64,000 nucleotides of DNA from an uncultured Nitrososphaerales archaeon (GCA_963713605.1 CAVQMO010000010.1:512001-576000); one strand, 5' to 3'. Shown: positions 9,471 to 39,612, numbered from the stretch's first letter. Notes: generated by a model not told the origin, from the letters alone. Made by a program: numbers and translations.

Positions 9471-9662
9471 TTACTGCCGTCCCCTCTCGAGATCTTGCAT
9501 TCTAGCTGTCAAAGCCATTAATTGATCAGAAAGGTGTGCTATGGCATCATCCTTCATCTTATCCCTTTCTCTAAATGACTGGTTTAGCTCTTCTAGTTCC
9601 TCTGTTTTGCTTTGAATATCTGCACCTTGTCTTTCGAGTTGATGCACATTCAGAAACGTAAG
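9471..9662 (-). pseudogene. C-terminal coiled-coil fragment, probably of a thaumarchaeal tyrosine integrase
   Basis: Hand translation: LTFLNVHQLERQGADIQSKTEELEELNQSFRERDKMKDDAIAHLSDQLMALTARMQDLERGRQ*, no start codon. The family call is from recalled similarity, not a search. Confidence 0.55.
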
Positions 9663-9803
9663 AACTAAAGCGTAGGATAGGTGAGTTCGAAAATATTTAG
9701 GAGTATTACACTGAAGAACAGATTTGGCAGATGAGATATGGAGACAACATGCAGATCATACCTGTAACATCCATCATTCAGAACCTGATAGTATCGCTAA
9801 GAC
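9661..9803 (+). pseudogene. terminase-like fragment, sub-family B
   Basis: ELKRRIGEFENI*EYYTEEQIWQMRYGDNMQIIPV / HPS..QNLIVSLR matches the segment at 29185-29380. Confidence 0.8.
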
Positions 9804-9818
9804 CAAAACGTAGAATTA

Positions 9819-10068
9819 AAGATAAGGTTAGAATTCTCAAATATTGTAAACCCACAAGATCCAAGTTCTAGTTATCAAGTTATAGTTAGAACCAGAAATG
9901 CAGCGAATGTTGTGATGGATGGCCCTACTCTTTCTGTAGCATATAACATAAAGCAGATAGGCACTGATGATTTAGAAAACGGTGCAATTACAACCGACAA
10001 GATACTCCAGGGGCGGTAACCGGAAACAAGTTAGAAGGGACGACAAAACTAGAATTTGGTACGTGTAC
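9819..10068 (+). pseudogene. fragment of a surface/fibre-like beta-rich protein
   Basis: KIRLEFSNIVNPQDPSSSYQVIVRTRNAANVVMDGPTLSVAYNIKQIGTDDLENGAITTDKI, no start codon. Paralogous fragment at 10607-10760. Confidence 0.6.
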
Positions 10069-10606
10069 GAGGTTCCTGCCTTCGATTCCTCCATTACAAT
10101 TCAGGGACATAATTTGCCCTACCCCACAAGGGGTACAACCTGGTGATCAGATTGTTGTAGAACATAGTAGCCTTACGATTTGTTGCCCTGAACCGGTACA
10201 TACCAATTCGGTCATCTCCACCAGCGGTCTTGCATTTGGATTCATAAATCCGAGTGAATTCTATTTTACTTATAGCGTACCCGTAACAATAAGTTATATT
10301 ATTTTTAGAACTCAATAACACAAGAACGAAATATGTGTTATAGCCCTCTTGTGCATCTGTTACCCATATTTTTATCAGATTTGGGATATAACTAAACAGA
10401 TTATTCTATCAGAACTCGCTTTATGCGTCTTTGAACCTCCGAAGAATCTCTGATTAACAGATGAACTTGAGGCTTATGTACTAGTCGATACAATTACTAC
10501 GACCATAGCATTGTAAGAACAATGACAGGTATTTTATAACCTTCAATCGAACTCTCGAATCTCATATAAAAGTTCCAATATAAAATGGGTATTCCAAAAT
10601 AACCTA

Positions 10607-10760
10607 GGTACGGTAAGTAAGTATGGACAAACGTTAACCTATACAGTAACCAATGCTGTCAACGTACCAGCAGGTACAAAGATAAGATTAGAGTTTGCGA
10701 ATAACAATAACCCACTAACTCCCAGTGCTAATTATCAGGTTATAGTTATGACAAGAGGTG
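10607..10760 (+). pseudogene. second fragment of the same surface-protein family
   Basis: GTVSKYGQTLTYTVTNAVNVPAGTKIRLEFANNNNPLTPSANYQVIVMTR. Confidence 0.6.
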
Positions 10761-12340
10761 ACATGACTTTTAACTTATCGCAGGAGGCAATTAAGAAGTG
10801 GGTGATGAATTCGAAATGAGAAGTCTAATCAGAAATAACTTGATTCGTTGTTTCCAGTTCCTTCTTACAACATGCACATAGGTATACCCAACTACCTGCC
10901 AGTTGAACCTGGTAGCCCCTTCACTATTTCTACAAAATGTCCATGTTACGCTTTTTCTTGCAAAACTGCCCTCCTCAACCGTTTTCATCCATTTTTGTCT
11001 TCCTATCATCATTGAAAACTATCTCTAAATCGAAAAACTGTGTATATACAAAATATATTCACGGGATTAGCCAGGCCAAGGTCGATATCGCAATATGGTA
11101 ACCAGGCTATTGCCTTGCCCTATCCACTGTATGATAGTGTGCGATTGAGGTAAAAGATTAAAAGAGCTTTCCGGAACTTGGTTACCCTTATGCCTCCATA
11201 GAACCGAATAAACCTTGTCAGCAACTCACTACCCTAAGGTGTCAAGTCAAGAGAAATTTTGACATGTTCATTGAGACATAGTCGAGCTATTGGTTAAGCT
11301 ATAACGTTATCTAGAAGAATAACAACCTATATTTGTCGTATGTGAAAAAATTTATAGTGCCGACCGAACCTCTAGTTCAACTTGCAGACCGGCCAATCAT
11401 ATCATCTAGCAGTGATATTGATACATCTGGCCTGGAACCATTGGAGATACAGTTGATTGCTAAATTGATGAAGTTGTATATATACATTGAATTTTTATCT
11501 TTAGAAATCCATATTTATGCATTTAACTTTGCCAATTGAGAATGTTATCTAATATCATGTCTCGATTCATACCGCAACTATCATGTCACGATAAAACTAG
11601 TATGTCGTGAAAGTGTTACTATGGAACAGTGATGTCAACTCCAACTACCAAAACTAGCTTGATGGTTTTAGACACTCTGTGAGTGATCATCACGAATGCA
11701 GAAGCCATAGCTTTTACTGTATTGGTATTTCACCGTACTTTACCAACTGTCCCGTTCTGCTGGAACTGAGCTCCTATAGGTCGGGAATCAAATCAATTTT
11801 GTTTCTGCTATAGGAAGACCCGTTGATGATCGTTGGGTTTTCCATGAAATAATATTATTCAATAATACGCAAAGCGAATCATTGTCTTTACTAAATAATA
11901 GTATCGGTTTATCCAAGGATACTGTTGGCAATGAGCCAGATTATATCTGACTATAATCTAACTAATTTGGTAAGTCTTCTCAGATGAATTCTATGTTACG
12001 AGATCCTGAAAGTCATCACTTCACTTTTTTTTAATTATAATCCATATTTTATTTATGTTCAGGCTGCTTTATCCAAGATTTGGGTTTTTGCAGACTTGGA
12101 TTATAATGACATTTTACACAGTTTATCTGCATATTAAAACACTGCTTAAACTTTCAGATTCTGAACATTCATGGTGCCATAAACATTTCACTAATTGTTA
12201 AGTATTGTCCTTACATCTACCAAAGGACTACAGATCCTGTGATAATAGAAATGATTCGATAATACAACGAGTAAAACTCTAATTCGCTAAGGCGTCCCGG
12301 ACTTTTGATGATAGGTTAGAAGAAGACACGAACTATGACG

Positions 12341-12439
12341 ACGACCGTCGAGAATGGCGAAGGTGCTTTCGACAAGGAAGCAACTAGTCATGATGACTTA
12401 TTTGATGCATTCCGTTTATCTCTGCAGTTCTGGCATTAG
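12341..12439 (+). pseudogene. terminase-like 3' tail, sub-family A
   Basis: TTVENGEGAFDKEATSHDDLFDAFRLSLQFWH*. Confidence 0.85.
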
Positions 12440-12579
12440 CCTTCGGTCAGCAGACGCCAAGCGTGATACTCTACTACTGCTTCTCGATTGCTGTTTTTGT
12501 CGTTGTCGCTCTGCTTTATGAACTCTGCAAAGTTTGTACAATCCATTATACTGTTACAGTAAATGCAAATCCATCTCAT
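12436..12579 (-). CDS. 47-aa CxxC micro-protein, copy 1
   Basis: MRWICIYCNSIMDCTNFAEFIKQSDNDKNSNREAVVEYHAWRLLTEG*. TATA box (TATATAAA) upstream; paralogue at 37641-37766. Confidence 0.7.
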   Translation of the reverse strand: MRWICIYCNSIMDCTNFAEFIKQSDNDKNSNREAVVEYHAWRLLTEG

Positions 12580-12696
12580 CTTATCTCACTGTAAAGTACT
12601 CATAACGCAGACATTGTTTATATAACATTCTTATATAGTTCTGAAACAATGAGATGACGACGGTGGTTCTGCATTCTTCACTCTCTTTTTGTCCTT

Positions 12697-12935
12697 TCAC
12701 AGATCATTGTATTCTCTCGACCCACCGAGATGCCACTCAGGTGGTTCAAAAGGATCTGCATAGTAATGCGTTTCATGTGCGATCTTACCATTTCTGAACT
12801 CCATGATACCTACCGCATTAATTGGACGCCTATCATTATAGGTGATAGCTAATTCAGTTATCCAGAGATTTTCTTCTCTACGAACTCGCAGGGTTTTAAA
12901 AGTGACTTTAGCGGGGTAATGTGACCTGAGTTCGT
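12697..12935 (-). pseudogene. SnoaL/NTF2-like C-terminal fragment
   Basis: LWITELAITYND..GIMEFRNGKIAHETHYYADPFEPPEW. The N-terminus is missing. Confidence 0.7.
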
Positions 12936-12984
12936 ATCTGTCGTGCTTACCGTTCGCCGGACTGTACATTATGGCAGCTATTTG

Positions 12985-13105
12985 TTTTGTTCTATCATAG
13001 CTTCCGTAATGAACAAGATTGCTCAACTCTATTCTTTCAAATCTTTCTGGCTTTTCTGCTAGATATCCTAATGCAATTATGCCTATGGGCTTAATTGTTG
13101 ATGCT
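12985..13105 (-). pseudogene. nitroreductase C-terminal fragment
   Basis: IKPIGIIALGYLAEKPERFERIELSNLVHYGSY. Confidence 0.65.
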
Positions 13106-13128
13106 TCTCAAAATAATAAAAGTTTCTT

Positions 13129-13281
13129 CTAGATTGCACCTCTCCTCTCTCCAGACGTAGGAGCAGGAGGAGTAGATTTCCGCTCTTCCGACTTTCTTTT
13201 TGCTCTTGAGCTAAACAATATCCCTGTTAGTACTGCAAAGGCACCCACCACAATTCCATACATGAATACTTGATCTGCCAT
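13129..13281 (-). CDS. 50-aa single-TM micro-protein
   Basis: MADQVFMYGIVVGAFAVLTGILFSSRAKRKSEERKSTPPAPTSGERRGAI*: a TM helix followed by a basic patch. Confidence 0.55.
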   Translation of the reverse strand: MADQVFMYGIVVGAFAVLTGILFSSRAKRKSEERKSTPPAPTSGERRGAI

Positions 13282-13950
13282 AACTACTAATGCAGAGAGT
13301 AAAAGATAAAGTTATACATACAACCACGCAACTAGACGACCCCATATTCACTTGAGGCAGACATATTTACTTATTAGATGCAAAATAAACAGGTTAGCTC
13401 CGATGATGAATTTTGCGTAATTTTATTGGTTATTCTTGAAATAATCTATTTATTAATCTAGCTGTGGAAGTGACTGGATTCCCGAAGTCAAGCAATGACA
13501 TCCATAATCAGTTACGGAGGCAGGCAGCAGAAAAACTAACTACTATTCGATTTAAAATATTATAATTAATCACTACAGTATGAAGAATTTCTGAAATTGA
13601 TATAGTAATATCTCTTTAGATTACCTGCTAAACTACTAATTTCTTTTATATCATTAAATTCATTTCTTCTATGTACTGCTATTCCCAAGGAACGCAATTC
13701 ATTCAACCACTACTCATATTTTCCAGAGCATTCATGCAGGATGACCAATACAGCCCTTATATTTTTCCCGTTATTATTAGGTGCGAATACATGCTTCAAA
13801 AGGTACATCACATCATATTAGGTACGTCTAGTAAACTTGAATACTTACTACACTTTTTATGGTAGATGGCAGGCGTAGGGGGTTCACCTACGGCTTGTTA
13901 ATAAATATAAATAAATACGATTACCACTAATTACTAGTAATGAAGGTGAG

Positions 13951-14222
13951 ATGGTCAAGAAATGTCTTACCAACAACAACAACAACAACAAGCGGAACAA
14001 CAAGTTCCGGTTAAAAGAAGGTACAAGAGAAACTAAGAAAAAAGATGCACAATCGAACAATATTTCAGCTGCTAGAACAATTGCTGAGATTCTGAAATCT
14101 GGCCTAGGACCTAGAGGAATGGACAAGATGCTTGTGAATTCACTTGAGGACGTAACAATTACAAATGATGGTGCAACGATTCTCAAAGAGAATTGATGTG
14201 CAACATCTTGCTGCAAAGATGA
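13951..14222 (+). pseudogene. thermosome (group II chaperonin) N-terminal fragment
   Basis: [35 protein letters not shown], then truncated. Confidence 0.9.
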
Positions 14223-14258
14223 CATGTATCTATTCAAAGGGATTTAAATCTCTGTGAT

Positions 14259-15254
14259 GTGTATTTATCTATAATAAGGTGTATTCGGTTTGTGCTTAAA
14301 AACTGTAACATAAGCGATATTTGTAGAAGAAAGCATTCCCATATTCATATTCTGACTGACCCAACAAATGGAGAAGTTATCTGTATCGATTGTGGAGCAG
14401 TCATTGCTGAAACTGGTCCTGAGTGGAGTGCTTTTGCTTACGTTGAACTCAATTTAAAAGGTAGGGCGGGAATGCCAGTGTCTTTAGCCATACATGATCA
14501 AGGACTTTCTACAGTGATTGGAAGAAATAAAAGAGATTTTTCTGGCAAAATAATTGATGATTCAACTATGCGGTCACTAATCGAGAGAGTAAGGATCTGG
14601 GATTATCGTACGCAAACCAAGGATTCAAAAGGGTGGAGCCGGAAATATGCATTTCGCCAGCTCGATAATTTAAAGGAAAAACTGTCATTACCTTATCCTG
14701 TGGTGGAGAAGGCGGCTTATATTTACAGAAAAGCTCAACGAAATGACATAGTAAGAGGTAGAACTATAACTGGGGCGATGGCAGCGTGTGTATACATTGC
14801 ATGTAGAGAAGCTGGAATACCAAGAACATTTGACGAAGTGGCGAGAACCACTAATATTACACGTAAAGGGGTCTCAAATGCGTATATTGCAATAGTGTTA
14901 GGACTAGAGCTTAAGATACCATTGATAGATCCTATTATGTATTTAGTTAAACTGGCCAATAAGACACATGTTGACGAAAAGATAAAAAGATATGCCTTAG
15001 GCTATTTGAAGCAGATCATAGATAGCAATATATCAGCTGGCAAAGATCCAATGAGTATTGCAGCAACAGTTCTCTACCTTGCATGCTTGAAGTATGGTGA
15101 TGAGAGTAAAACTCAAAGGTACTTCGCTGAAGCAGCTGGCATATCAGATGTCACAATAAGGAATAGACGCCAAGAACTACAAAACAAGATCCCCTCTATG
15201 ACTTCAAAAAATAGTAAATCAAGGCGAGAGACTGATCAGGATCACGAACTCTAG
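14259..15254 (+). CDS. tfb: transcription initiation factor IIB paralogue
   Basis: GEVICIDCGAV Zn-ribbon half, GPEWSAF, HDQGLST, AAYIYRKA..GR, GKDP..AA..LY, SDVTIRNR. The true start may lie downstream. Confidence 0.92.
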   Translation: MYLSIIRCIRFVLKNCNISDICRRKHSHIHILTDPTNGEVICIDCGAVIAETGPEWSAFAYVELNLKGRAGMPVSLAIHDQGLSTVIGRNKRDFSGKIIDDSTMRSLIERVRIWDYRTQTKDSKGWSRKYAFRQLDNLKEKLSLPYPVVEKAAYIYRKAQRNDIVRGRTITGAMAACVYIACREAGIPRTFDEVARTTNITRKGVSNAYIAIVLGLELKIPLIDPIMYLVKLANKTHVDEKIKRYALGYLKQIIDSNISAGKDPMSIAATVLYLACLKYGDESKTQRYFAEAAGISDVTIRNRRQELQNKIPSMTSKNSKSRRETDQDHEL

Positions 15255-16200: not shown

Positions 16201-16414
16201 ATGAAGTAGAGAAATCAGAAGTCCAAGAATAAATCAAGCCAATACGAAAGAAGATGAAAGCGTGACAGAGATCCATATGCTAACTAATTATGCAAACCAC
16301 AAATAATGTGTTTATGCTGGATGCTTTCTCCTCTAATTCTCATACACTATATGATGTTAATTGTTGTTATATATTGGCAAAATGGATTAGATGTATATGT
16401 TAGTTGAATGAAGG

Positions 16415-16825: not shown

Positions 16826-17326
16826 ATGATCTCATTTTATAGCTAATGTTATAATGTATATTTCGGTCTGTATGTCCACGACCTATCTATTTAGCTATGA
16901 CATACATCGAATATGCTTAAGCATTGTTCACAAAAGTATTTTTCACGTGAAGTACGAATAACTTTGACATCTCTATTCGTTCGGAAGCAGCTGTTACATC
17001 TTAGGATGAAATCATTAGTATCAGGATCCCATTCTTCCATAGATGATTTCTAATCTTTGAAGGTATTTAATAGTGTGTTGTAAGCCGTAGGTATGCGAAA
17101 AGTAATGTCTGCAGTATTTGATACGGCCAATGGATATTCTAATATTATTTATTACGCTTGATACAATCTAACTTCTGTTCTAAGACCCCTTTGAGAACAT
17201 AGGGCAATAAAGCACCACTTAAAAGTGGATTCTCTCAAGAAGTATGACAAAAATAATTAGTGTGATAGGAATCAATAAAAGCGTAGATAACTGAATGTAA
17301 ATAGATACAATAACTGCAATCATTTT

Positions 17327-17632
17327 ATGTCTGGACCTGTACTACACGACAAAATACAAATAAAAGAAAGAAGAGAGAGTGTTTTGGTTCTTCTTACTAA
17401 GGGGATGAAAGGCTATGAAATAGCCAAAGAATTAGACGTTGATGCATCGACTGTGAGTAGAGATATCCAATATTTAACCTCCCAATCACATAACTAACTA
17501 AATTCATTGGCTAGGGAAGCCCTTCCATTTATTTATCAAACCTCAATAGAGGGAATAAGAAATATACTCAAAGAATGTTGGAAAATTTATGGTGCTGAGA
17601 GTAACAATAATGATTCTAAGAACAAATATTAG
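17327..17632 (+). pseudogene. HTH protein (possible small-terminase-like), internal stop at 17495 and 3'-truncated
   Basis: MSGPVLHDKIQIKERRESVLVLLTKGMKGYEIAKELDVDASTVSRDIQYL..*LNSLAREALPFIYQTSIEGIRNILKECWKIY. The HTH signature EIAKEL..STVSRD is clear. Confidence 0.7.
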
Positions 17633-25050: not shown

Positions 25051-25053
25051 GAT

Positions 25054-25176
25054 CATCTCTCTATGTCTCTTCTGAATGTTGACAGGTATTATCTGCATGT
25101 CTCCCGTCCGCATCAGCCAGAGCTGCCCCTCTGTGTAGTAGTGATAGTTCTCGAATTCACCATTCCTTCTTTTCAG
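25054..25176 (-). pseudogene. terminase-like internal fragment, sub-family B
   Basis: LKRRNGEFENYHYYTEGQLWLMRTGDMQIIPVNIQKRHREM matches 29190-29303. Confidence 0.85.
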
Positions 25177-25924: not shown

Positions 25925-27207
25925 AATCAGAATTAGAGAAACAATTATTCCACCTAGAGCATAATCTTTCGAGTACACGCCATCGGTGATGTTGGTGTCT
26001 CTCCGCACTTACTCTGCGGGTTTTCTGTACACTTGGCTGGCCAACGACCTATTAAGTCGATGTATAAAGACCTGGACGACCTATTAAGTGGGGTGGTTGA
26101 GGATTAGATGACAACTATGAAAAGCACACAGATCCCATAGGTGACTAGGTTACCTTGCCGGACAAATTAAAAATATTGGATAAATAGGAAAAGATCTTTT
26201 CTTTATAGAGGACTAAACTATCAGATAAGGTGTTTCATGTAAAGACTTTCTTAAGATCTGACGTTGCCATATGAAATAACCTATTTCGCAATTATATTGT
26301 CTTTCACGTCCATTGCGAAAGCTGGTTCTGGACCAGGGTGAATTAAGAAAATATCTAGACGTTGTAATAAAGGAAGTAAAAAAAGGAGAAAGATCTTCAT
26401 CACCTAGCTAGTAGTACAAAAGGGGTTAAACTGATACCCTAAAGTTATCCGCGGTAGCTCAAATGATTAAACTAGTATTATTCGTTTGTGTAGTCAGTAT
26501 TATACATCGTCGATCTAGAAATCAGTGGGCTTCGCACATATCAAAATCACTGAAAATAGTGGTTCCTTAATAAGTTGAGTATTTTAGAACTAAATGTGAA
26601 TCAGTGCGACATCGAGACGGCGGTACAAGGTGTGTTTTTCTAAAGTCTTAATGTTAATATAGGTTAGTTCTCAGTGCTTTCCTCTTCTTATTACTGTCGC
26701 TTCCGAAGAATCATACTGGCATTGAATAATGCATGAATAAATATCCACCTTTATGGAAACTACGGGTTAAAAACTGCTAGTATCAAGATTGTACTTTGGA
26801 AGTTCATAGTTCATAAGTACAAGCCTCAACGAATCTAATAGATTGTCATGCGAGGTCAGTTGCTTATCGAGTTTCCACTCATCTGAATCAAACAAAGCGC
26901 GAGTATGCAAATATCAAGCAGGATTTGACTCAGGAGTTTTTGAAATTCATAAAGATAAGTGAAGAATGTGAGATTTTTGACTTAAATTTTGGGTTCAGAG
27001 TGTTAACAGCCGATTATCATTATATCTTTTATCTACAATTCACGTACGTGTGAAGATCAAAGTATCTACTGTTCCCTTTAATGTTCACAAATCATTTTAT
27101 GATGTCTCTAGAGGCATAATAAACTCCTATCCTTGGAATGTAGTGCAATATCGCAAGCGACATCATTCGTGAAAATTTGGAACTTCCTTACTAGTAATAT
27201 CCTTACT

Positions 27208-28632: not shown

Positions 28633-28715
28633 CCTTCGATCGTTTGTTCTTTATTCTTTGCTGCAATTCTAGGGTTTACTGTACGTTTGTGCGTTGGATT
28701 TCTTGTTTTGCTAAA

Positions 28716-29517
28716 GTCCTGTTTGAGAAGATAGAAAGAGAGCCAGAGAATACCTGTTTATACAAACGGTTATTTCTAGACTATACATATGGCATAGACA
28801 AGATATACAGTAGGGAAGGTATAGCACTAGCACAGAAATCTCCTTCATTTGAGAGTGAATACAACCTCAAATATCTGGGTAAGGTCGGCAACGTATTTCA
28901 TACTCTGGACATTGAAGCAGCTATAGTAACGGAGCAGCAAGGTCAGGAAATGCTGGACTGGTCGACAAGTACGATGATAGGCATGGGTATTGATGTTGCT
29001 TGGGGAGATACATCAAAGTTTGCTATCGTCATTACTCAACACAGAAACAACAAAGTGGAAGTGTTCTATGCGGAGAGCTTCGACAAACCACAGATGAATC
29101 AGATAATAAATCACAATCTACAACTGAAACAAAGACATCATATAACGAAGTTGTACGTGGATGGTGCGAATCCAGAAGTCATTAGGGAATTGAAGAGGAG
29201 GATAGGTGAGTACGAGAACTACCACTACTATACTCTCTGGCTGATGTGGACTGGCGACATGCAGATCATCCCAGTCAACTTCCAGAAGAGATACAGAGAG
29301 ATGCTGCAATGGACATATACACTGATGTTCAAGAGGTTTATCAAGATACATCCTTCGCTGCAGAAACTCATAGTATCTCTTCACACTGCAGTTGTGATAG
29401 ATGAATGGAAAGCTAGACAAACTACAAACATCACATAATGATATTCTTGATTCTTTCAGACTGGCGCTTTGCAACTATGAGCCTCCAAAAAATCTGTATT
29501 CGTTATTGGTAAGGTAG
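28716..29517 (+). pseudogene. terminase large subunit-like gene, C-terminal half (RNase H-like nuclease domain), sub-family B
   Basis: FESEYNLKYLG..GNVF, GMGIDVAWG..S, LYVDGANPEVI and, after a frameshift near 29410, TSHNDILDSFRLAL. These match the G-x-D, D-x-A-x-P and H-D-D-x-x-D acidic motifs of TerL nuclease domains. The ATPase half is absent. Confidence 0.75.
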
Positions 29518-29660
29518 AAGTTTTTCAGTACGAGAAAGGTATAGGTTTATCATCAAAAATTGTCAGCAAATTTTTTTCTTACAAGCAAAGCAACAATTGA
29601 TGTTCCAATAAATGTAGCACTCCAATATAACCATAGATTATCCAAAATCCCTCAATATCT

Positions 29661-30212
29661 CTATCTTAGAGATGAGGGTGTAGAAGTCTCTTTATATCTT
29701 ACATAAGGACTCGATTGATGAAAATAAGCTATGTATCCAACTATCAATGATAGAAATACGATAAGGTCGTAGATGAAATATGACGGGCTCAAATATATAT
29801 CACTGTCGAGCTTATCGAGACATGAAATACAGCCAGTCACTACATAGAGATATTGTTCCATTCCTGCAGAATCAGCAACTATGAAATTCCAAGATTGACT
29901 AATTAGCGCAACAACAATAAATGACTTAACCAATCGCATATCCTTAAAAAATGAATTTCTAAACAGAAACCATGTCAAAGTAATTAGCAAACCTAGAATC
30001 ATCACATTGTACAAGTAATGAAATAGTTCTTTAGCAACCTCCGAGTCGTGGTGATCGCGTGTTAATTGAGAACCTACCATAAACTCTTGGATCGTATGTG
30101 CCAAATTTCCCCAGATAGAAAGCCCACTTATAATTAGAGTTATTGATAATATAATGAATCCTTTCATCACTAATTTCTTTTCATCGCATCGTGATTTTAT
30201 GGATAATGTCAT
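29661..30212 (-). CDS. 4-TM membrane protein
   Basis: Four hydrophobic segments, with His residues and a CISC motif. Confidence 0.7.
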   Translation of the reverse strand: MTLSIKSRCDEKKLVMKGFIILSITLIISGLSIWGNLAHTIQEFMVGSQLTRDHHDSEVAKELFHYLYNVMILGLLITLTWFLFRNSFFKDMRLVKSFIVVALISQSWNFIVADSAGMEQYLYVVTGCISCLDKLDSDIYLSPSYFIYDLIVFLSLIVGYIAYFHQSSPYVRYKETSTPSSLR

Positions 30213-30483
30213 CTAATTCGAATCACCACCTGCACTTCAAACACGGCAAGTCTTGTCGCATCTATGACAGCACATCTGTTTGTTAGAGACGGTGATTTGA
30301 TACTCACGTTTAATTATGACAAGAAGTTACTTAACTCTTCTTGTATTATAAGTTGGTTAGTAATATCGTCGAAGCATTGAACACAGAACCATATGCAAGT
30401 TAGTAATAATGATGCTACAAAGTTCAGGTTCCAATGTTACAATAATTTAATCTATAGGCTGTCTAATTAATCTCATTCTATAT

Positions 30484-30684: not shown

Positions 30685-31092
30685 AGCCAACGACTAGGAT
30701 ATAAATGATCCAAATCTATTATTTTTTACTGAATTATGGCAAGACTTTAAAGTGCTTTAAAAGATTTACGAGGAGGAGATCTGTTCAATGCGACTTGAAC
30801 TCACAAGCACAGTATGAGTGGTCTCCAATTTTAGAAATTATCAATAAGCGCACGGCTTATATATTATAGATATCTTGAAGCTACCCAGTGTTATTATTAT
30901 GGTAACATCTGTCAAAGGATAGATAAGCTACGGGAAGATGAAGAACTGGTTTATGCGGCCACTTTGTTAAGTCCTTGCAAGGTTATTATGCTAATACCCC
31001 CGACAGAAACTAAATGATTTCCTTTAATGTTTGTCACGTTTCAAATAAAAGTTTAGGCCGCATATTTTAAATAGTTAACGCAATAGAACTTC

Positions 31093-31575
31093 TTACAACG
31101 GCAAATCTGGTGATCGGATTTGTTGTGCCCTATGCGTAACTAACCTAAAGATCGCTCTTTTCTTGTTAAGAATAATTGTTAGAGTCGTAAGTATATATGT
31201 TGTCTGCATTACTTCGGTTAACAAAGCTATGGGATTCTTATCTTGCAACTCTATGCCTGTTATTTCATTTGGAATCCTTGTCAATGCTATCAGTGAGGTT
31301 AGTGCAATAGTTCCTATTAGACCTGCATAAAACCAGCGTGTATTCCAGTTTAATGCCATTGGTATCGCCCAGAAGATTTGTGCTATTCCAGATATAAGGA
31401 ATAAGCCATCAGTATATGGAAGTAATTCCATGGGAAAATTGAGAGGCTTCATTGAAGGCCCGATCATTATTAGGTGTAGAATCCCTGCAATCATAGTAGT
31501 TGCTGCTGCTATGTAGAATAGAACATGATTTTCGAACAAAACAGTTTTCACGCCAAACCGTATGACACTTGACAA
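31093..31575 (-). CDS. 4-TM membrane protein
   Basis: AGILH..F...GIAQIFWA.P..W...G..GT..L.....R.P. Confidence 0.75.
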   Translation of the reverse strand: MSSVIRFGVKTVLFENHVLFYIAAATTMIAGILHLIMIGPSMKPLNFPMELLPYTDGLFLISGIAQIFWAIPMALNWNTRWFYAGLIGTIALTSLIALTRIPNEITGIELQDKNPIALLTEVMQTTYILTTLTIILNKKRAIFRLVTHRAQQIRSPDLPL

Positions 31576-32171
31576 TTACCACAAACCTCCAACTACGTCA
31601 TTCTTAATTGATTCATAGTCCATACCATATAATGGCTTCAGTTTCTTATGTAGTATCATTATAATCCTTTATCACGTATGTTGATGAATTATGATTAAAC
31701 ATACTACTTGGTAATCAGTAACGAACAATCTTGGCAAATCAAAGATAATATTTAGGAGCGTTAATCCCTGTAGGGTGCCCATTGTAACCAATTTATCGAA
31801 ATAATAGAATTTGTTAGTTGGGTGGCCTTAGGTTTCACCAATGTCCCGGCTTACGATAGTGCAGTCCGTTCAACACATGTTTGTATTGCACTAGAAATAT
31901 AATCCACACCGATACGTTATGGAACGACTCTAGTTCTGCAGGAATTGTGTTCGTGATCATGAACTCACGTATTGTGAGTAATGGTGAGGTACAACCTAAT
32001 TTACAATTAGGAAACTTTTTTCCGGCAACTTTTGTATGTATCTATTAGTCATTTTGATATGAATGATGAGGTATTATAAATCATAATCTTTTGTTCAAAG
32101 AAGGAGGATTCTCTATTAATCATACCCGGAATATACAAAACTTATTGAGCATCGCTCCTATATTAGAGATT

Positions 32172-32462
32172 ATGAGTAAACTGATGTATGTAAAAAAACT
32201 AGAAGTAAAGAAGGAACAAATACCTACAGATAAACACTTAACGACCAACCATAAGACATTGATGCACACGATCGTAGCCGTTGTAGGATTGTCAATACTG
32301 ATAGGAGTCGGGTTCGCATTTATGGGATACACCTCAGGTCACTTTTCAGAGGCATATGTGTTATGTAAGAACGACGTGTTATCACAAGAAAGGATAGGTG
32401 TATTCCAATCTGCAAACGAAATTACTGCGGCGCTACAATCATGTAATGGAGTAACCAATTAG
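32172..32462 (+). CDS. single-TM hypothetical protein
   Basis: TM helix plus two Cys. Start codon uncertain. Confidence 0.55.
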   Translation: MSKLMYVKKLEVKKEQIPTDKHLTTNHKTLMHTIVAVVGLSILIGVGFAFMGYTSGHFSEAYVLCKNDVLSQERIGVFQSANEITAALQSCNGVTN

Positions 32463-32714
32463 AGAAGTAGATTTTACGTCAAAGCATAAAGGCTGGATTG
32501 GCTCGTCACAAACACGCATGGTAGGACGGCCAATTCACTTCTACATAGTCCTCGAGTCGGCCAGATGATCTGAATATCGCAATAATCTATCTTCCACCAG
32601 TTTATTCACGTATCTGTTAAGAAATGGTCTGTCCATTTCTACTTTAGATGCCTCTATGAAGTATACTTTAGATGCCTATATGACATAGTTCAATAACAGT
32701 GGACACAACTCGCC

Positions 32715-32845
32715 CAGAAACTCATAGTATCTCTTCACACTGCAGTTGTGATAGATGAATGGAAGCTGACAAACAACAAACGTCCCATGATGATATATTT
32801 GATTCATTTAGGCTTGCTTTATGCAACTATGAGCCAGCGGACTGA
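32715..32845 (+). pseudogene. terminase-like 3' tail, sub-family B
   Basis: QKLIVSLHTAVVIDEWK(L)DKQQTSHDDIFDSFRLALCNYEPAD*, with a 1-nt deletion. Confidence 0.88.
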
Positions 32846-33502: not shown

Positions 33503-33775
33503 TCATATTTTTCGCGCAATATGAACAGAAAATCTATTACTAAGTTGAGTTCTTGAAAAATGTCGCGGATCATGCGATACAAGAACATGGTGTGCACGCC
33601 GATGAAATCTACTTGAACGATCTTCCGGTCAATCTTTTGTATCATTCCTTTTAACGAATGTGAGGACATTCTGCAATTATTACTGCCTATTAGGAATTAG
33701 TAGAATTGCTTGGATAGTTAAATAGGAATAGTCGAAATATTTGTGTGCAACTTCGATTAGAAAGAGTCTTAAATC

Positions 33776-34213
33776 ATGCAAAACCATCATAATTATATGA
33801 AAAAAACATGTCTAAAATTTGTCTTAGGCGCAGGACTAGGGTTATTTATATTAAGTACTATTCAGGTGTCGGCTCAACCTCTAACAAAGGACACTTTAAC
33901 TGGAAATGTAACAGAAGTAGACATTTCAATAGATCCTGCAGAACCCCTGCCGCCAAACGGGACGGTAACTATCAGTACAGAAGGTGCAACAGATACAGAC
34001 ATGAATGCATTTCCACCTGAAGGAGTTAACGTCATTATCTCAAGTGATACCGTTACAGTAACGAATCAAACCGTAGATCTCGGAACGGCTGAGGGACAGG
34101 AAGATGGATCTGGATCCGGTGATGGAGGTTCTGATGAGGGATCTGGATCCGGTGATGGAGGTTCTGATGAGGGATCTGGATCCGGTGATGGTGGTTTCGA
34201 TGATGAGGAGTGA
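33776..34213 (+). CDS. secreted acidic protein with GSGSGDGGSDE repeats
   Basis: Signal peptide (VSA|Q) and a 33-bp unit repeated about 3 times at 34105-34200. Confidence 0.75.
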   Translation: MQNHHNYMKKTCLKFVLGAGLGLFILSTIQVSAQPLTKDTLTGNVTEVDISIDPAEPLPPNGTVTISTEGATDTDMNAFPPEGVNVIISSDTVTVTNQTVDLGTAEGQEDGSGSGDGGSDEGSGSGDGGSDEGSGSGDGGFDDEE

Positions 34214-34744
34214 GTAGAGGAGTGAAGAATGCGATGACTATTGTCTGAGTATCCTCTTTATTTTCTGCGCGCAAATTTACATCATCCTGAATTGAAATTT
34301 GAATCGAAAAGGCAGGGCCATGGTAGATTGGATGCCGATAGAGTCGCCCGCCTTTATGGTGTGTGTTGCGATTAAGGGCCAACTATCTTCCTGATCGAAA
34401 ATTGACTTTTAGTGTGCAAGTTTCGTATTCCAATTTGTTTGTTGATTGAAATTAGAAAGGTTATCGATGAATCTCATCTAGGGTATACTCTGATATGAGC
34501 CTAGAGGAACCAATACTAACTGTGAGAAACCTTCAAAACTTTTTTAGCGTCAACTGAATCAATTTCTGTCAATGATGATGAGCCCCTTTACCTACGGGAA
34601 TCTAACCGTACAGGGGTAGAGAGAGCATCTTTCCGTAAGATGAGTATTTCGGAAAAGACAACGGATCTAGTCCAATTCAACCATGGTATGTCATCTCATG
34701 CTTGCATACAACATCTTTTAAAGTAGTGAGTCACTCAAGTCATC

Positions 34745-35467
34745 ATGCAAAATGCTTCCGGAGTAACTTTCATCGTGAAAGAGATGGTAAAGCACCTTGG
34801 TAACTTGCTATTTGTCAATGCTCTATTCATATTCCTTCGCAAAAGAACAAAATCAGGAGCAGAGTACAATATCAAGTTAATTGGACAGCCGACTAACTAC
34901 TTTAAAATTAGCGCCGCCGTTATCGGCATATCGTCTTCGGTTATTTCAATTTTGATTGTAATTGTATTCGATCAAAACATAATGATAGTAATTGCTGCCG
35001 TATTCATTTCTCTTGGGACGGGGCGACAGATCTTTGCCTCGGCACTGGATGTCGTAAATACGAACCTGAACGCCTTCTTGTCATCTTGGGCATCAACTCT
35101 TCTATTGCTTGCAAAGAATAGGCTGATGGTGACGACGACAGATTGGCGTTCCATAGAACGTCGAGTCGAGCTGATACTCATGAGCAGGGGGCTTGGGTAT
35201 AATTTGCCAGTTAAACTCGATGGGGTAAAACCAGAATCTCAGCAAATATTATTAGAGTATTTGGATGAGCATAAATTGGAGTTAGAGTATCAACAGGCTA
35301 TTACAGATGATGATTCTAGCTGCCTTGCTTTTGTCCAATACGCAACTAAACAGATGAAAGAAAAGTTTCAGATATATGATGAACTGGAAGAACTACAGGA
35401 AAGAAGTGGAGGCGTTAACGCAGTAATCCTGATAGCATTGGGAACGTTGATTTGGTTAATTTCATAG
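34745..35467 (+). CDS. membrane hypothetical protein
   Basis: 240-aa ORF with TM segments and a TATA-like TTTTAAA upstream. Confidence 0.65.
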   Translation: MQNASGVTFIVKEMVKHLGNLLFVNALFIFLRKRTKSGAEYNIKLIGQPTNYFKISAAVIGISSSVISILIVIVFDQNIMIVIAAVFISLGTGRQIFASALDVVNTNLNAFLSSWASTLLLLAKNRLMVTTTDWRSIERRVELILMSRGLGYNLPVKLDGVKPESQQILLEYLDEHKLELEYQQAITDDDSSCLAFVQYATKQMKEKFQIYDELEELQERSGGVNAVILIALGTLIWLIS

Positions 35468-35484
35468 TTTGGCAGTTCTTACAG

Positions 35485-35719
35485 CAGAATATGTTTGTCA
35501 TTTCAGTACCATTTAGCAAGGAACAAGAACATGTTATTCCATGTCAAAGAACTCATGGAGTATCAAACTGGATATGTGGCTATTCATCCAAGCCATAACA
35601 AACTAATAACATCCCTAAAAACTGCTGTAGAAAATGGAGAGGGCATGCTAGACAAGGAAGCCACTTCACATGATGACCTGTTTGATTCTTTCAGATTATC
35701 CCTTCAGTTCTGGCATTAG
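35485..35719 (+). pseudogene. terminase-like 3' tail, sub-family A (longest A copy)
   Basis: QNMFVISVPFSKE/KNMLFHVKELMEYQTGYVAIHPSHNKLITSLKTAVENGEGMLDKEATSHDDLFDSFRLSLQFWH*. Confidence 0.88.
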
Positions 35720-35895
35720 TCTAGTCTGGCAAGACAAGGGAGATGGAATCTTGATATACATTTAGATCGGGGCACCCTGTGCTTTGTTGTCTGCAAGTCT
35801 GATTGAGCATGAACTGTAAGAGCTGCACCACAAAATAAGAAGGATATAGAATAAATGGAAAGGACCAACGCTAATATTTTCTGCGACAACACCAT
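35716..35895 (-). pseudogene. N-terminal signal-peptide fragment of a secreted protein
   Basis: MVLSQKILALVLSIYSISFLFCGAALTVHA|QSDLQT, then degenerates. Confidence 0.5.
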
Positions 35896-35949
35896 GCCAA
35901 ACTTTGAAGGCAATATTTAATGATGTTTACCTATGATCGCCTTCAAGGA

Positions 35950-36075
35950 TTCAGTAAACTCATAACAGCATTAAGGACAGCAGTACAGAAAGGGGACGGT
36001 ACGCTGGATAAGGAAGCAACTTCACATGATGACTGCCTGGATGCTTTCAGGTTGTCTTTTCAGTTTTGGCATTAA
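35950..36075 (+). pseudogene. terminase-like 3' tail, sub-family A
   Basis: FSKLITALRTAVQKGDGTLDKEATSHDDCLDAFRLSFQFWH*. Confidence 0.88.
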
Positions 36076-36330
36076 CATGGTTAGAACTTGATTTAGGATT
36101 CGCCGCTTTTGTAGGCTTGTCAATCCTGTCCAATGCCCCAATACCTCCTTCTTTTTCTTTATGCAATTCATGGCCTTTGTCTGCGTCATGGTAACCTAAC
36201 CAATAACAAAGGTTTAAAGTCATACTCAGTAACCTCGTTGGGGGTGCCTCGGGATATTTCTGATTCTTCCTCGCAATGGGTTTACCTTCAGGATCTTGAA
36301 ACAATACGTCATAAGATTCTCCTGTCATTA
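36047..36330 (-). CDS. hypothetical protein convergent on a terminase tail
   Basis: MTGESYDVLFQDPEGKPIARK... part of ORF 36047..36490. Start uncertain. Confidence 0.4.
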
Positions 36331-36468
36331 TTTGTAACTCCTCGAAAGATTTCACAGGAACTATGACTAAGGGACGTAGATAAGAAAGCAACAAGCCACG
36401 ATGACCTCTTTGATCTTCCAATAAATATATCTTACAAGTCTGCCTTAACGCTTTAAAGCGTAGTTTGG

Positions 36469-37222
36469 ATGGATACGTTATTGCATTCACAAGGACAAGG
36501 AGAACTTAGAAAGAAAACGTCCGTGAGCGCTGCCGTCCGTGCTCTTAGATTCGCGTTATGTCTCATTTTACTAATTATACCTGTGATGTCAACTGCTTTC
36601 TCTGATAACGCGATAGGACAGACAGTACACCCACAAAGAGTGGAGATTACAAGAGTAATAGATGGAAACGGGGCCAACCCTTGTCCACCTTTTCAGGGCC
36701 CTGGACTTCCCCCCGCCGGAGAGTGTGATCAAGCAACAGTATCAAAAAAGATTACTATATCATTTAGAGCTGTAGCCGGTGTGCCCAATGTAGCTATGTA
36801 GTATAGATGGAAAGGCTTTTGCAAGCTGTACCAGTCCCATTACCTTCAATAATCTTGCTTTAGGTATTCACACTTTCATAGTAAAAGATAAATCAGCGGC
36901 GCCTCAAAACCCAGATTCTTACACTTGGACCGTACTAACGCCAGCTCAAGGAGTACAAAAACTGATCGATACTATAAGTACGATGAATATCAATCCCGTA
37001 TTCAAAAATAGTTTGATATCTCAGCTAAAAAGCGTCAAGACAATAATTACCGATGGCAGTCCTAGCAACGACGTCACAGCATGCGTTCATTTAGATTCAT
37101 TCTTGATACAAGTAAGGATCCAAAGTCAGCTGGGGATACTAACTACTTCTCAAGCTAACCAAATAATATACACTCTGCCGTTTTCAGCGCAGGCAATAAA
37201 GACGTCATTGGGATGTGCATAA
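36469..37222 (+). pseudogene. secreted Ig-like-domain protein, split near 36800
   Basis: Signal peptide, ITISFRAV, then SIDGKAFASCTSPITFNNLALGIHTFIVK..YTWTVLTP continuing into 36983..37222. Confidence 0.65.
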
Positions 37223-37640
37223 AATACGAGCTAACGGTCTATAGACGCGACCAAACTTTCATTCAGTTATTAGCGTTACCCTAAAGCATTCATAGTTTCT
37301 GAAAGAATCTTACCATTGCAGTTGTGGCATTAGTTGGCGGGGAGACTACCCTTAACACCGAATGGTGCAAATTGCCTAGACTTAAGTAGGATTAGCCACC
37401 GTTGCCGGCAGCGCCACTTTCGTTAACTATGCGGTTTGGGAATCTGTGGAAGTTTACAGAAATGCTGTCAACAAAGTTGGCGTTCGGCGGTCTAGACTAG
37501 CCACTTATCCTGACAGCACAGTCGTATCGCCACATTTGTTCGAGGGTTGCGGTTCCTGAGATCTCCCAAGATTGAATTTGTTTGGCATATCTCCGTAATT
37601 CTGGCACTAGCAGTCTAGTCTAGTCTTATGGCAGTAGTCG

Positions 37641-37766
37641 TCAAGTGTGGTACTTTACTCTCGCCTCTTGAATGCTGTTTTTGTCGTTGTCGCTTTGCTT
37701 AATGAAGTCTGTGAAGTGCGTCCTATCCATTATGCTGTTACAGTGAATACATTCGAATCTCATCAT
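37641..37766 (-). CDS. CxxC micro-protein, copy 2 (Trp codon changed to TGA)
   Basis: MMRFECIHCNSIMDRTHFTDFIKQSDNDKNSIQEARVKYHT*RLLP. The upstream region is also conserved with copy 1. Confidence 0.7.
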   Translation of the reverse strand: MMRFECIHCNSIMDRTHFTDFIKQSDNDKNSIQEARVKYHT

Positions 37767-37863
37767 CTCGTTTTACTGTAAAGTCAACTCATAACGTCAA
37801 CATTGTTTATATACATTCTAGTATAGCTCTGCTAGAATCTTTCACTGTCACGGTCATGCTGGG

Positions 37864-37889
37864 TTCAGATTGTCACTGCAGTTCTGGCA
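37864..37889 (+). pseudogene. minimal terminase-like tail remnant, sub-family A
   Basis: TTC AGA TTG TCA CTG CAG TTC TGG CA = FRLSLQFW. Confidence 0.65.
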
Positions 37890-38105
37890 ACCTGATTTTA
37901 AACTGTATGCGTTAGTAGTCATGGACTCCACGTCTTTCCAGAAATCATCCCATATGATGTAGGACTTATCCCTTAGTTGCTTTCTACAAATATTACGGAG
38001 TCCTGAATCTAGGAAACCGTGAAGGATGAACTTTGAGCCCACAAATTGACCGACCTAAAAGAAGGCTAAAAGATAATAGTTGGTATCGTTAGTAATAGTA
38101 GTAGT

Positions 38106-38375
38106 ATGGTTACGCCGTGCTTCCAATCTTTTGTTGCAATAATCCTTGTTGCAACCGCTATTGTATTGCCAGTGTCAGTGTCGTTCGCAACGGAGCGAGC
38201 TATTCTACCTGAACCAGTACCTGAACCAGTACCTGAACCAGTACCTGAACCAGTACCTGAACCAGTACCTGAACCAGTACCTGAACCAGTACCTGAACCA
38301 GTACCTGAGTCAATACCTGAATTTTCCATATCGCCTTTCCCCTTCCCTTTTCCACCGAGTAGTAGTACCGGTTAA
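38106..38375 (+). CDS. secreted Pro/Glu-rich protein (PEPV x8), possibly continuing into 38397..38639
   Basis: Signal peptide followed by the tandem repeat. Confidence 0.6.
   Translation: MVTPCFQSFVAIILVATAIVLPVSVSFATERAILPEPVPEPVPEPVPEPVPEPVPEPVPEPVPEPVPESIPEFSISPFPFPFPPSSSTG
38208..38320 (+). repeat. 12-bp tandem repeat CCTGAACCAGTA x8 plus degenerate units
   Basis: Read directly from the sequence. Confidence 0.97.
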
Positions 38376-38686
38376 ATCGAACCCACAATCATCCCAATGT
38401 GCATAAACAGTGTGTCTGGATTCATACCTTTGCAATCGTTTGGTGCTACAACATGTCCAGCCCAATATTTGGAGGTAATCTTGATAACTAATCCTTCAAA
38501 TACAGCAGTTACGTTTAGTGGTAGTACTAGTAGTAATGTAAATAATTTACCTCCCGGCAATAACTTGTGCACGTACGGTGTATCATACGTAGGTTACCCT
38601 AGACTGATTTTATATGAATGCCTTCGATTGCCTGCATGAAAATGGTCGTGGGCGGAAATAATAGGAGATAAAAGAGACTGACTTCA

Positions 38687-38804
38687 ATGTCAAAGAGGTT
38701 TATCAAGATCCATCCTTCGTTGCAGAAATTGATAGTATCTCTGCAGACGGCTGTTGTGATAGATGATTCGAAGCTGGACAAACAGCAGACATCACACCAT
38801 GATA
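38687..38804 (+). pseudogene. terminase-like 3' tail, sub-family B
   Basis: MSKRFIKIHPSLQKLIVSLQTAVVIDDSKLDKQQTSHHD. Confidence 0.88.
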
Positions 38805-38844
38805 CCACATCTTAGCGAAATAAATAATAAACAAATATGAGTAT

Positions 38845-39048
38845 CTAACGACGATTGCTACTGCTATCATTAGTATTACTTGTTTCAGCAGTGTCGCTGC
38901 TATTTAATGGGATTTGAGTTGGATTATCCTTATGTTGTTTAAACTTCATTATGGCGCTGGCATAGGCACTACTGGACGTCCCCATGAGTACCGAACTAGC
39001 TATTAGTGCTGAAGCAATCGCTGCTATAGCTATTGCCAGAATATTCAT
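38845..39048 (-). CDS. small secreted protein
   Basis: MNILAIAIAAIASALIASSVLMGTSSSAYA signal peptide; TATA-like element upstream. Confidence 0.6.
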   Translation of the reverse strand: MNILAIAIAAIASALIASSVLMGTSSSAYASAIMKFKQHKDNPTQIPLNSSDTAETSNTNDSSSNRR

Positions 39049-39137
39049 CTTCACTTCAGTTCTGGGTAACAGTATAGAGCGCAAATATATATACTGATTT
39101 TTCTGAAAATTTGTGAGCACTGGGATAGGCAGTGAGT

Positions 39138-39284
39138 CTTGCTCCTTGTAAACATATACTGGGGTACAACAACGGCAACGTAGCGATTCATCCCAAGTTT
39201 AAAAACTATCACAGTGCCGTAGAAAAAGGAGAAGGGACTTTGGATAAGGAAGCAACTAGCCATGACGACGTTATTGACGCACTC
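39138..39284 (+). pseudogene. terminase-like 3' tail, sub-family A
   Basis: LAPCKHILGYNNGNVAIHPKF / AVEKGEGTLDKEATSHDDVIDAL. A detached QFWH* lies at 39398-39412. Confidence 0.85.
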
Positions 39285-39612
39285 ACTAATCATGATGCAA
39301 TGCATTAATCTGATGTACGACGGTCAATGTAACGGTTTACATAGCGTCAATGTAGTTGCCACCTTTGGAATCGATAAGATAAGATAAGACGAGCCCCCAG
39401 TTTTGGCATTAATGCCATGTCTTTTACAGGAACTCACTTCTGACGGGCGTGTTTAGGGTGTCTCCTCAGTTTTTAGCACTGAAGTTCGTGACTGGGGTGA
39501 TGGATCTACCTACTCCACATCCTAAGGCTGTAAATACAGAAAATATATCTACAATGCTATTCTTGAAAACTCAAGTAGTACTTTTCGCCATATGGACCTT
39601 GGATCGTAATGT

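Follow-up and report, generated by a model that had tools for sequence, protein, structure and literature searches.

Arrays of terminase gene 3′ ends in a Nitrososphaerales genome and their possible origin as relics of capsid-less integrated elements

Introduction

How does an archaeal genome come to hold more than a hundred pieces of one terminase gene family, most of them reaching the 3′ end of the gene, without a single intact copy? The question is raised by a 64,000-nucleotide stretch of DNA (the window) from an uncultured Nitrososphaerales archaeon (GCA_963713605.1, CAVQMO010000010.1:512001-576000), in which pieces of a gene for the large terminase subunit (TerL) lie dispersed over some 30 kb. 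An earlier reading of the window, made without database searches (the sequence-only reading), had proposed that the 3′ end of the gene is a recurring recombination anchor and that the pieces form an integron-like array. Here we describe the gene family, its truncation pattern across the genome, the elements to which it belongs in related genomes and the island that contains the window pieces. The data suggest that the TerL ends, here called tails, may be scars of integrated elements that lost their core genes.

Results

Terminase pieces in the window

Six-frame and translated searches recovered at least 13 pieces of one TerL family in the window, none of them intact, within a region (9.6–39.4 kb) where long open reading frames (ORFs) are scarce. 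Eleven solid pieces lie on the + strand and two on the − strand. The longest is ORF 28644-29438, and tblastn with it found five more; chance is excluded by tblastn and hidden Markov model (HMM) E-values as low as 9e-32. Two sub-families, A and B, are represented, which share 42.5% identity over 228 aa (E 7e-51). The pieces are listed below (an asterisk in a translation is a stop codon; HMM and profile positions are those of the 500-position TerL profile).

9661-9803, +: late-interior fragment of sub-family B with an internal deletion; translation ELKRRIGEFENI*EYYTEEQIWQMRYGDNMQIIPV...QNLIVSLR
12341-12439, +: sub-family A tail, 32 codons and stop; translation TTVENGEGAFDKEATSHDDLFDAFRLSLQFWH*, and HMM
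25051-25176, −: inverted interior fragment of B; 79% identity over 42 aa, E 2.9e-16
26806-26901, −: inverted B tail; HMM 468-499 and translation
28716-29517, +: 5′-truncated B gene with a frameshift near its end; profile 229-499
32715-32845, +: B tail with a frameshift; tblastn, HMM and translation
35473-35719, +: A tail of ~78 codons ending FWH* (35485-35719 in frame 2); E 8.9e-32
35950-36075, +: A tail of 41 codons ending FWH*; E 9e-17
36376-36414: weak TerL piece; E 0.07
37319-37333: weak remnant of the TerL end motif; translation
37596-37610, +: minimal A tail end, a bare FWH*; motif with 3 mismatches and translation, weak alone
37864-37889, +: short A tail remnant, GFRLSLQFW; translation
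38672-38806, +: B tail minus its last codons (38687-38804 in the sequence-only reading); HMM 444-488 and translation
39138-39287, +: A tail minus its last codons (translated 39138-39284); HMM 440-493
39398-39412, +: A tail end PQFWH*, which may be the displaced terminus of the piece before it; translation

The sequence-only reading had counted about ten pieces of one terminase-like family, none full length, and every position that it gave translates to that family; the pieces at 26806-26901, 36376-36414 and 37319-37333 are additional. It had placed all but one on the + strand: the bias stands, with the inverted tail at 26806-26901 as a second exception. Its description of the pieces as tails fits most of them, but 9661-9803 and 25054-25176 are late-interior and interior fragments and no true tails. 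Its statement that capsid and portal genes are missing also agrees with our search, which found no such family among window ORFs of at least 100 aa.

The gene family encodes large terminase subunits

Better-preserved copies elsewhere in this genome (G000) encode one half that resembles an ATPase (LDEADFF, MVSTPN) and another that resembles a nuclease and ends in SHDDLFDAFRLSLQFWH. A 375-aa open piece of sub-family A matched the large terminase subunit profile of PHROG (PHROG 2, phrog_2) with an E-value of 1.9e-17, and a sub-family B piece alone matched the TerL profile weakly (E 0.0028). A search of public proteins yielded 6886 candidates, 3909 of them relatives at E ≤0.001; the best 120 listed are mostly 480–525 aa long, several are named Nitrososphaeraceae, and many carry the precomputed domain PF17289 (terminase RNase H-like domain).

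An AlphaFold model of one intact relative (P0018, from a 20-sequence alignment) had a mean pLDDT (predicted local distance difference test score) of 66.7, with values of ~85–94 in the nuclease half. Foldseek gave 68 matches at E ≤0.001, the best of which (E 1.8e-13 to 1e-9) included T4 gp17 (3cpe, E 1.8e-13), HK97 TerL (6z6d, 1.9e-11), Sf6 gp2 (4ife, 2.0e-10) and D6E TerL. The template modelling scores of these fold matches are low (0.24–0.36) because the domains are placed differently. In 20 TerL sequences, residues D186, E187 and D189 (of LDEADFF), S218, T219, P220, D315, D375 and D481 are invariant or nearly so; these would correspond to the Walker B motif, the C-motif and the catalytic aspartates of TerL. 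The P-loop reads KKATGLGVT, with no classical GKT. A PDB sequence profile search with the family gave no matches, and Pfam gave no TerL match for P0018 or the family, only sub-threshold DEAD hits. The terminase identity that the sequence-only reading had deduced from motifs is borne out by the phrog_2 match and by the fold match to the T4, HK97 and Sf6 enzymes.

TerL pieces across the genome are truncated from the 5′ side

An HMM built from 20 intact TerL relatives was run with relaxed filters against a six-frame translation of the whole 4.08-Mb genome, and 148 domains at E ≤0.01 were merged into 111 TerL pieces. None is intact, and the two longest carry frameshifts, stops or an internal deletion. 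The C-terminus (profile position ≥485 of 500) is reached by 84 of the 111 pieces and the N-terminus (start ≤30) by seven. Of the 84 C-terminal pieces, 66 begin no earlier than position 420 and 50 no earlier than 460, and about 30 tails are at least 50 aa long. Coverage of the profile is accordingly steep: ~5 over the first 220 positions, then 15, 30 and finally 86 at positions 481–490. The 5′ ends range from the whole gene down to a bare FWH*, and homology among the tails ends at the stop codon. A detection artefact was considered and rejected, as the most invariant stretch of the protein (positions 186–290) is covered 5–15 times versus 86 times for the tail.

The pieces are also clustered and co-oriented. 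Eighty of the 111 have a neighbour within 12 kb, versus 48% expected under uniform scatter, and 48 of 57 neighbouring pairs within 12 kb point the same way. Even sampling of the gene in random orientation, the pattern of ordinary provirus decay that the sequence-only reading had set against its own proposal, is not what we see (84/111 C-terminal, 48/57 pairs co-oriented). TerL matches occur in all 14 genomes of the genus, with 3–113 each (a tally that includes the unpublished G013), and several hold intact genes; from these counts, TerL copy number appears to scale like selfish DNA.

The sequence-only reading had also noted that several tails are followed by a convergent, unrelated gene. When the longest ORF of at least 70 aa was taken in the 900 bp past each of the 84 tails, 37 were co-directional and 36 convergent, and 11 tails had no such ORF. 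The orientation past tails is thus random genome-wide, and a convergent-gene rule was rejected.

Intact relatives close a conserved gene block

For context we fetched 79 loci around TerL relatives in other Nitrososphaeraceae genomes. All recurrent neighbours lie upstream of TerL on the same strand, in the core order integrase, replication-type protein, TerS, TerL, with TerL last. Directly 5′ of TerL, 38 loci encode a ~170-aa helix-turn-helix (HTH) protein with a weak match to PHROG 2538 (small terminase subunit, TerS; E 2.9e-4). Upstream of this TerS-like gene are large proteins in three clusters, one with DUF4326, and farther upstream is a 330–470-aa protein that matches the PHROG 1 integrase (E 3.7e-6); a 14-member alignment of this family (cluster 2) displays the pattern R..HxxR..H..Y. 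Downstream of TerL, none of the ORF clusters is recurrent in these 79 loci, in line with the hypervariable DNA that the sequence-only reading had looked for past the gene. Clusters 3, 5 and 9, candidates for downstream genes, were rejected as antisense ORFs inside TerL. Six loci do have a cluster-2 integrase past TerL, at a distance of 2–5 kb and encoded on the other strand.

Among 55 IMG/VR contigs, relatives at 33–52% identity were found, and in the two contigs checked genes for a portal and a major head protein come after TerL. In the 79 cellular loci no structural gene lies downstream of TerL. By sequence profile and modelled fold the family is a true TerL, yet one whose genomic context here is non-viral.

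The integrase mirrors the truncation of TerL. G000 contains 43 integrase pieces, of which 15 are N-terminal-only, two C-terminal-only and five full genes, and this 5′ bias holds even though conservation is higher in the catalytic C-terminal half. In three cases an integrase fragment is fused to a TerL remnant, at a distance of 4–61 bp. The TerS-like HTH family has 40 pieces in G000, 19 N-terminal-only versus two C-terminal-only, a bias that may in part be a detection effect of the conserved HTH; ten of the 40 have a co-oriented TerL piece within 1.5 kb downstream. Direct repeats around the integrase-to-TerL units of nine loci did not exceed 13 nt. A solo tail upstream of the integrase, which would be expected if attP were in the tail, is present in none of the informative loci L010, L042, L069 and L071. 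Fragments of such upstream genes in the window are listed below.

8669-9028, +: fragment of a large cluster-14 protein, encoded upstream of TerS/TerL in other loci; blastp 40% over 80 aa to L054:3426-8804
9516-9665, −: C-terminal fragment of a tyrosine integrase of the cluster 2 family; HMM positions 322-369, E 8e-06
17291-17497, +: fragment of the TerS-like HTH gene (cluster 1); blastp 48% over 46 aa, eight cluster members match

Tails have no fixed start and derive from many genes

Searching the genome with a DNA profile built on the final 300 nt of 33 intact TerL genes gave 96 matches. Tail starts spread continuously over profile nt 150–237 (~90 nt), with no position exceeding four and with modes at nt ~162–170 and 189–215. 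When 22 unique solo A tails were compared over their final 20 codons, nonsynonymous divergence (dN) was 0.27 and synonymous divergence (dS) 1.39, a ratio of 0.195 (91 usable of 231 pairs). This low ratio indicates that the tails diverged under protein selection and hence derive from many different working genes. Constraint at the DNA level beyond coding is not visible in the tails, whose synonymous sites are saturated.

Tail and downstream DNA appear, from shared sequence, to be inherited together. The TerL tail of locus L011 with its following 900 bp is 92% identical to the solo tail of L046 with its 900 bp, the TerL bodies being 77% identical, and the tails at C10:222723 and C1:671400 are followed by 906 bp in common. 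The copies at C1:556021 and C3:8426 share 359 bp until 36–42 nt before the tail end and then diverge. Duplicates at ≥85% identity amount to only 21 pairs of mixed extent, from which element ends are not definable.

Within 3 kb of 69 solo tails we found 18 integrase or TerS remnants, 17 of them co-oriented with the tail. In the 79 loci, extra tails number 15 downstream and co-oriented, three upstream and co-oriented and two inverted, with the compared flank lengths equal (418.6 versus 408.5 kb). This downstream excess does not discriminate between models because the element core fills the ~10 kb upstream. In 15 loci an intact TerL is followed at 52 bp–3.6 kb by a co-oriented tail with no core-gene remnant between them. 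Three of the loci, L018, L052 and L057, all from genome TH526, are copies of one composite in which an intact B-type TerL is followed after 52–57 bp by an A-type tail of ~70 codons; on this sequence comparison, tails can evidently be copied as passengers of active elements. Tandem intact TerL genes without their upstream genes also occur, in pairs ~2.2 kb apart, at L001 (6320-7789 and 10001-11482) and G008:C315 (2252-3733 and 5945-7414). In L001 a TerS-like gene stands before the first copy only.

A single 39.4-kb island contains the window pieces

Every TerL piece in the window falls within a strain-specific segment bounded by attachment (att)-type direct repeats.

5614-5630, +: left att-type direct repeat CAGATATTTAAGTATCT, near-palindromic; flank alignments to relatives G003 and G010
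5631-44994, no strand: strain-specific 39.4-kb island with all window TerL pieces; absent in G003:C4 and G010:C60
44995-45011, +: right att-type direct repeat TAGATATTTAAGTACCT; differs by 1 mismatch from the pattern taken from the left repeat

The two repeats share 16 of 17 nt. In G003:C4 and G010:C60 the site is empty, window position 5630 being joined directly to 44997 with a 15-nt overlap. The att core AGATATTTAAGTATCT (the att is also written AGATATTTAAGTA) is near-palindromic, A+T-rich and intergenic, and lies beside a MOSC-domain gene; no tRNA gene that could serve as target was found in the window. At up to two mismatches, the att pattern has four matches versus 0.81 expected; the left copy accounts for two of them, one per strand. 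With direct repeats and empty sites present, the segment is most readily read as a site-specifically integrated island.

A further relative, G008, carries a different island at the same site, the first 65 bp of which match the G000 island. In G008, a full integrase gene lies 56 bp from this shared left arm (E 1.5e-107), and the right part of the island contains four co-oriented tails and a copy of the x cassette described below, ~1.3 kb from the junction. In G000, the 65-bp left arm is kept and integrase is present only as the C-terminal fragment on the other strand at 9516-9665; it would seem from this comparison that G000 kept the left arm and lost the integrase. Compared with relatives, the island interior shares only scattered 0.2–1.5-kb modules with unrelated flanks and has no syntenic counterpart in the relatives searched. 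These observations depart from the sequence-only reading on two points: it had described an array without att repeats, and the whole array sits inside one island with 16/17-nt att-type repeats; it had looked for strain indels ending inside tails, and the sole indel that could be examined ends at those repeats.

Two modules adjoin tails

Two short units recur next to tails. The first, x, is a 425-bp unit found between tails at several places in the genome that encodes, on the opposite strand, a ~140-aa SnoaL-like protein (SnoaL_2, E 2.8e-11 for a full copy). About 24 full copies with both ends constant occur in 10 of the 14 genomes of the genus. A co-oriented tail starts −1 to +34 bp past x in 20 of 24 copies, and a tail ends 6–70 nt before it in at least 16 of 24. 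The x–tail junctions form two groups that differ by one 27-nt deletion, and the junction therefore probably arose once. The closest x pairs (96% and 92% identity) have only x in common, with unrelated flanking tails, and in the closest pair high identity ends at the x ends (+1 and −18 nt) without reaching into the tails. The unit is oriented against the array, and a conserved stretch upstream of its start makes it appear to have its own promoter. Neither an empty/occupied pair nor a circle was found for x. The second unit, of 813 bp, contains a 240-aa ORF (ORF240) whose protein has no Pfam or PHROG match; four further G000 copies (89–92%) and copies in five relatives have identical ends throughout.

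12697-13026, −: truncated x copy (x homology 12713-12951); 82% identity to x positions 4-240
34662-35474, +: multi-copy ORF240 module, 813 bp; the next TerL tail starts exactly at its right end

Other features of the window

Directly past the last tail, ORF 39449-41134 (561 aa) has five tandem PANLTTLQQ repeats and long Q/P/S/T-rich stretches and probably encodes a secreted or surface protein. A 183-aa − strand ORF (29661-30212) belongs to no known family, and window positions 29658-30367 are 97% identical to G000:C14:11664-12372. A 1.5-kb module (31070-32573) contains ORFs 31093-31575 (−) and 32091-32462 (+), neither of known family, and is present as single copies in G001, G002 and G003 at 82–92% identity with unrelated flanks. 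Host-type ORFs in the flanks cover their Pfam models only in part (DUF1326, 1-92 of 177; DUF72, 86-182 of 217; CN_hydrolase, 2-170 of 256; window positions 594-974, 2199-2696 and 45628-46149), which suggests many broken genes across the genome, beyond the island.

Discussion

The explanation that we favour, with moderate confidence, is that the tails are scars of capsid-less integrase–replication–TerS–TerL elements, the cores of which were deleted while outer gene ends and cargo were retained. Under this account an abundant Nitrososphaeraceae family of integrative elements, with a tyrosine integrase, a large replication-type protein, a TerS-like HTH protein, TerL and then variable cargo, would enter orientation-specific att sites and accumulate in islands. 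Internal deletions would afterwards remove the core genes, and the survivors would be the integrase 5′ end, the TerL 3′ end and the cargo beyond TerL. Each tail would then head or abut a cargo block from a different element, its co-orientation inherited from site-specific integration, and tails with cargo may later have been duplicated aboard younger elements and rearranged by recombination. We adopt this reading because the truncation of TerL is graded and lacks a fixed site, integrase pieces show the mirrored bias, and the island is bounded by att repeats at a site where a relative carries an integrase. We infer that deletion, and not active cut-and-paste at the tail, made the tails.

Several observations weigh against it. 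The distribution of tail starts is not a smooth decay but has modes near −135 nt and between −105 and −85 nt, though part of this arises because families share one junction, as with the x cassette. For at least 55 of the 69 solo tails, the surrounding 3 kb contain no remnant of integrase or TerS, and the tails detectable at 20 aa (84) far exceed the integrase heads (15, plus five full genes), an imbalance for which the different detection lengths can be argued, given the ~30 tails of at least 50 aa. Many separate deletions of 8–10 kb are required. No internal att copy, at up to two mismatches, lies in the island, and serial integration at att is not directly visible. Finally, the sharp ends of x in 24 copies from 10 genomes, and a closest pair that shares no flanks, fit active exchange better; the x and ORF240 units are the best argument for something more active than decay.

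The integron-like account of the sequence-only reading takes up this last point: the TerL tail would be a recombination site at which an element-borne enzyme inserts and excises circular cassettes of cargo plus tail, building arrays behind TerL. It would explain why x has two constant ends in ~24 copies and 10/14 genomes, with tails after it in 20/24 and before it in at least 16/24 and the most similar pairs sharing x alone, why ORF240 modules end exactly at the tail start in many copies, and why intact TerL is followed in 15 loci by co-oriented tails at 52 bp–3.6 kb with no core remnant between. We nevertheless consider it unlikely. There is no fixed boundary, as tail starts range over ~90 nt and tail lengths from 15 nt to more than 300 nt; the last 20 codons are synonymously saturated (dS 1.39) with no conserved core sequence visible; the only indel seen ends at att repeats, outside the tails; x has an apparent promoter of its own and points against the array, unlike integron cassettes; convergent cargo is no rule; and descent from one event, with groups a 27-nt deletion apart, can explain the conserved x–tail junction. 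It is equally doubtful, in our estimation, that the tail is the working site of an archaeal cassette system in which x and ORF240 are cut out and re-inserted between tails behind TerL. A related proposal keeps the integrase as the agent: elements would target the TerL 3′ end, bring a replacement tail and displace the old one downstream. It has precedent in passages of Krupovic et al. 2019 (PMC6563490), according to which 14 of 68 thaumarchaeal integrated elements occupy protein genes, in their 3′-distal part, and re-use of a site lets tyrosine-recombinase elements build arrays, and it accords with TerL staying intact, with extra tails being mostly downstream and co-oriented (15 versus three upstream and two inverted) and with the opposite-strand cluster-2 integrases 2–5 kb past TerL in six loci. 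That downstream excess is expected anyway, however, with 10 kb upstream of TerL filled by the element core, and no integrase separates intact TerL from the first solo tail in any of 15 loci, where some inserts measure 52–57 bp; the two tails flanking an insert have no long identical core and boundaries vary, which leaves this proposal improbable to much the same degree.

Host recombination offers a different route, in which similar tails are portable homology that anchors the swapping of cargo between arrays or elements. The constant tail-flanking of x, with flanking tails unrelated between its closest copies, speaks for such exchange, as does the divergence of C1:556021 and C3:8426 at 36–42 nt before the tail end, suggestive of a breakpoint within the tail. 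However, tails that are ~75–85% alike over 60–135 nt are poor substrates, and the two closest x copies cease to be highly similar at the x ends (+1, −18 nt), short of the tails; we regard this route as quite unlikely, more so than those above. Least probable of all, and in our view only barely credible, is that the terminase cuts a pac-type site in its own 3′ region, the tails being left ends of packaged DNA established in recipients by a lateral-transduction type of transfer. Pac cleavage series in P22-type phages are similarly imprecise to the ~90-nt scatter of tail starts, and tail and downstream DNA do travel together, but the cargo blocks (0.05–4 kb) are much too short for any headful, no capsid source is apparent, and the 5′ bias of the integrase is left unexplained.

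Deletion scars of integrated elements thus remain our preferred reading, and we regard the TerL-tail arrays as relic arrays of an element family close to one published case, NitKor-E1 of Ca. Nitrosopumilus koreensis AR1. As described in passages of Krupovic et al. 2019 (PMC6563490), the virion genes of NitKor-E1 are limited to those for TerS and TerL, which are accompanied by a tyrosine integrase. Going by that described content, the elements here are alike: thaumarchaeal, with TerS directly 5′ of TerL, a tyrosine integrase and no other head-tail gene. NitKor-E1 is a single element in a marine genus, whereas here a soil family is present as 3–113 pieces per genome, mostly TerL 3′ remnants in arrays. 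Arrays of elements that re-use an att site, known in part from the same passages, likewise show co-oriented remnants, direct repeats, empty sites and an integrase by the att; their relics are fragments of tRNA or integrase genes, whereas the relic here is the TerL 3′ end of the element and not of a target gene, and no internal att copies are left in the island.

Other comparisons are looser. Integrons (IntI, attI, attC) resemble these arrays in their single-gene units, recurring separator and platform with a tyrosine recombinase; here, by contrast, there is no fixed-length structured site, boundaries vary, and x, judged from its sequence, has an apparent promoter and points against the array. 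Phage satellites (phage-inducible chromosomal islands, PICI, and the related cf-PICI) also combine integrase, replication and terminase genes without a capsid set, but the elements here occur in an archaeon with no helper known, and most copies are dead. As an analogy of pattern only, TerL coverage rises to the 3′ end as in 5′-truncated copies of long interspersed nuclear elements; there is no reverse transcriptase here, and the opposite bias of the integrase is not expected from retrotransposition. We found no description of arrays of TerL 3′ remnants in the literature searched (listed titles and abstract openings, and passages of PMC6563490 and PMC11849493).

If the tails are such relics, they would constitute a readable layer record in which each marks the arrival of a different terminase-carrying element. 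Past invasions of the accessory islands of soil ammonia oxidisers would then be countable and could be put in order: this genome would record 84 of them, and a relative has up to ~113 pieces. The DNA just past TerL would be the cargo zone of an abundant and almost undescribed family, with regulators, redox proteins and SnoaL-like proteins among its contents. Annotators of these genomes should expect TerL fragments and avoid calling them proviruses. Should the cassette reading prove true instead, the arrays would represent a new kind of archaeal cassette system, an exchangeable store of cargo in which a coding sequence serves as the site.

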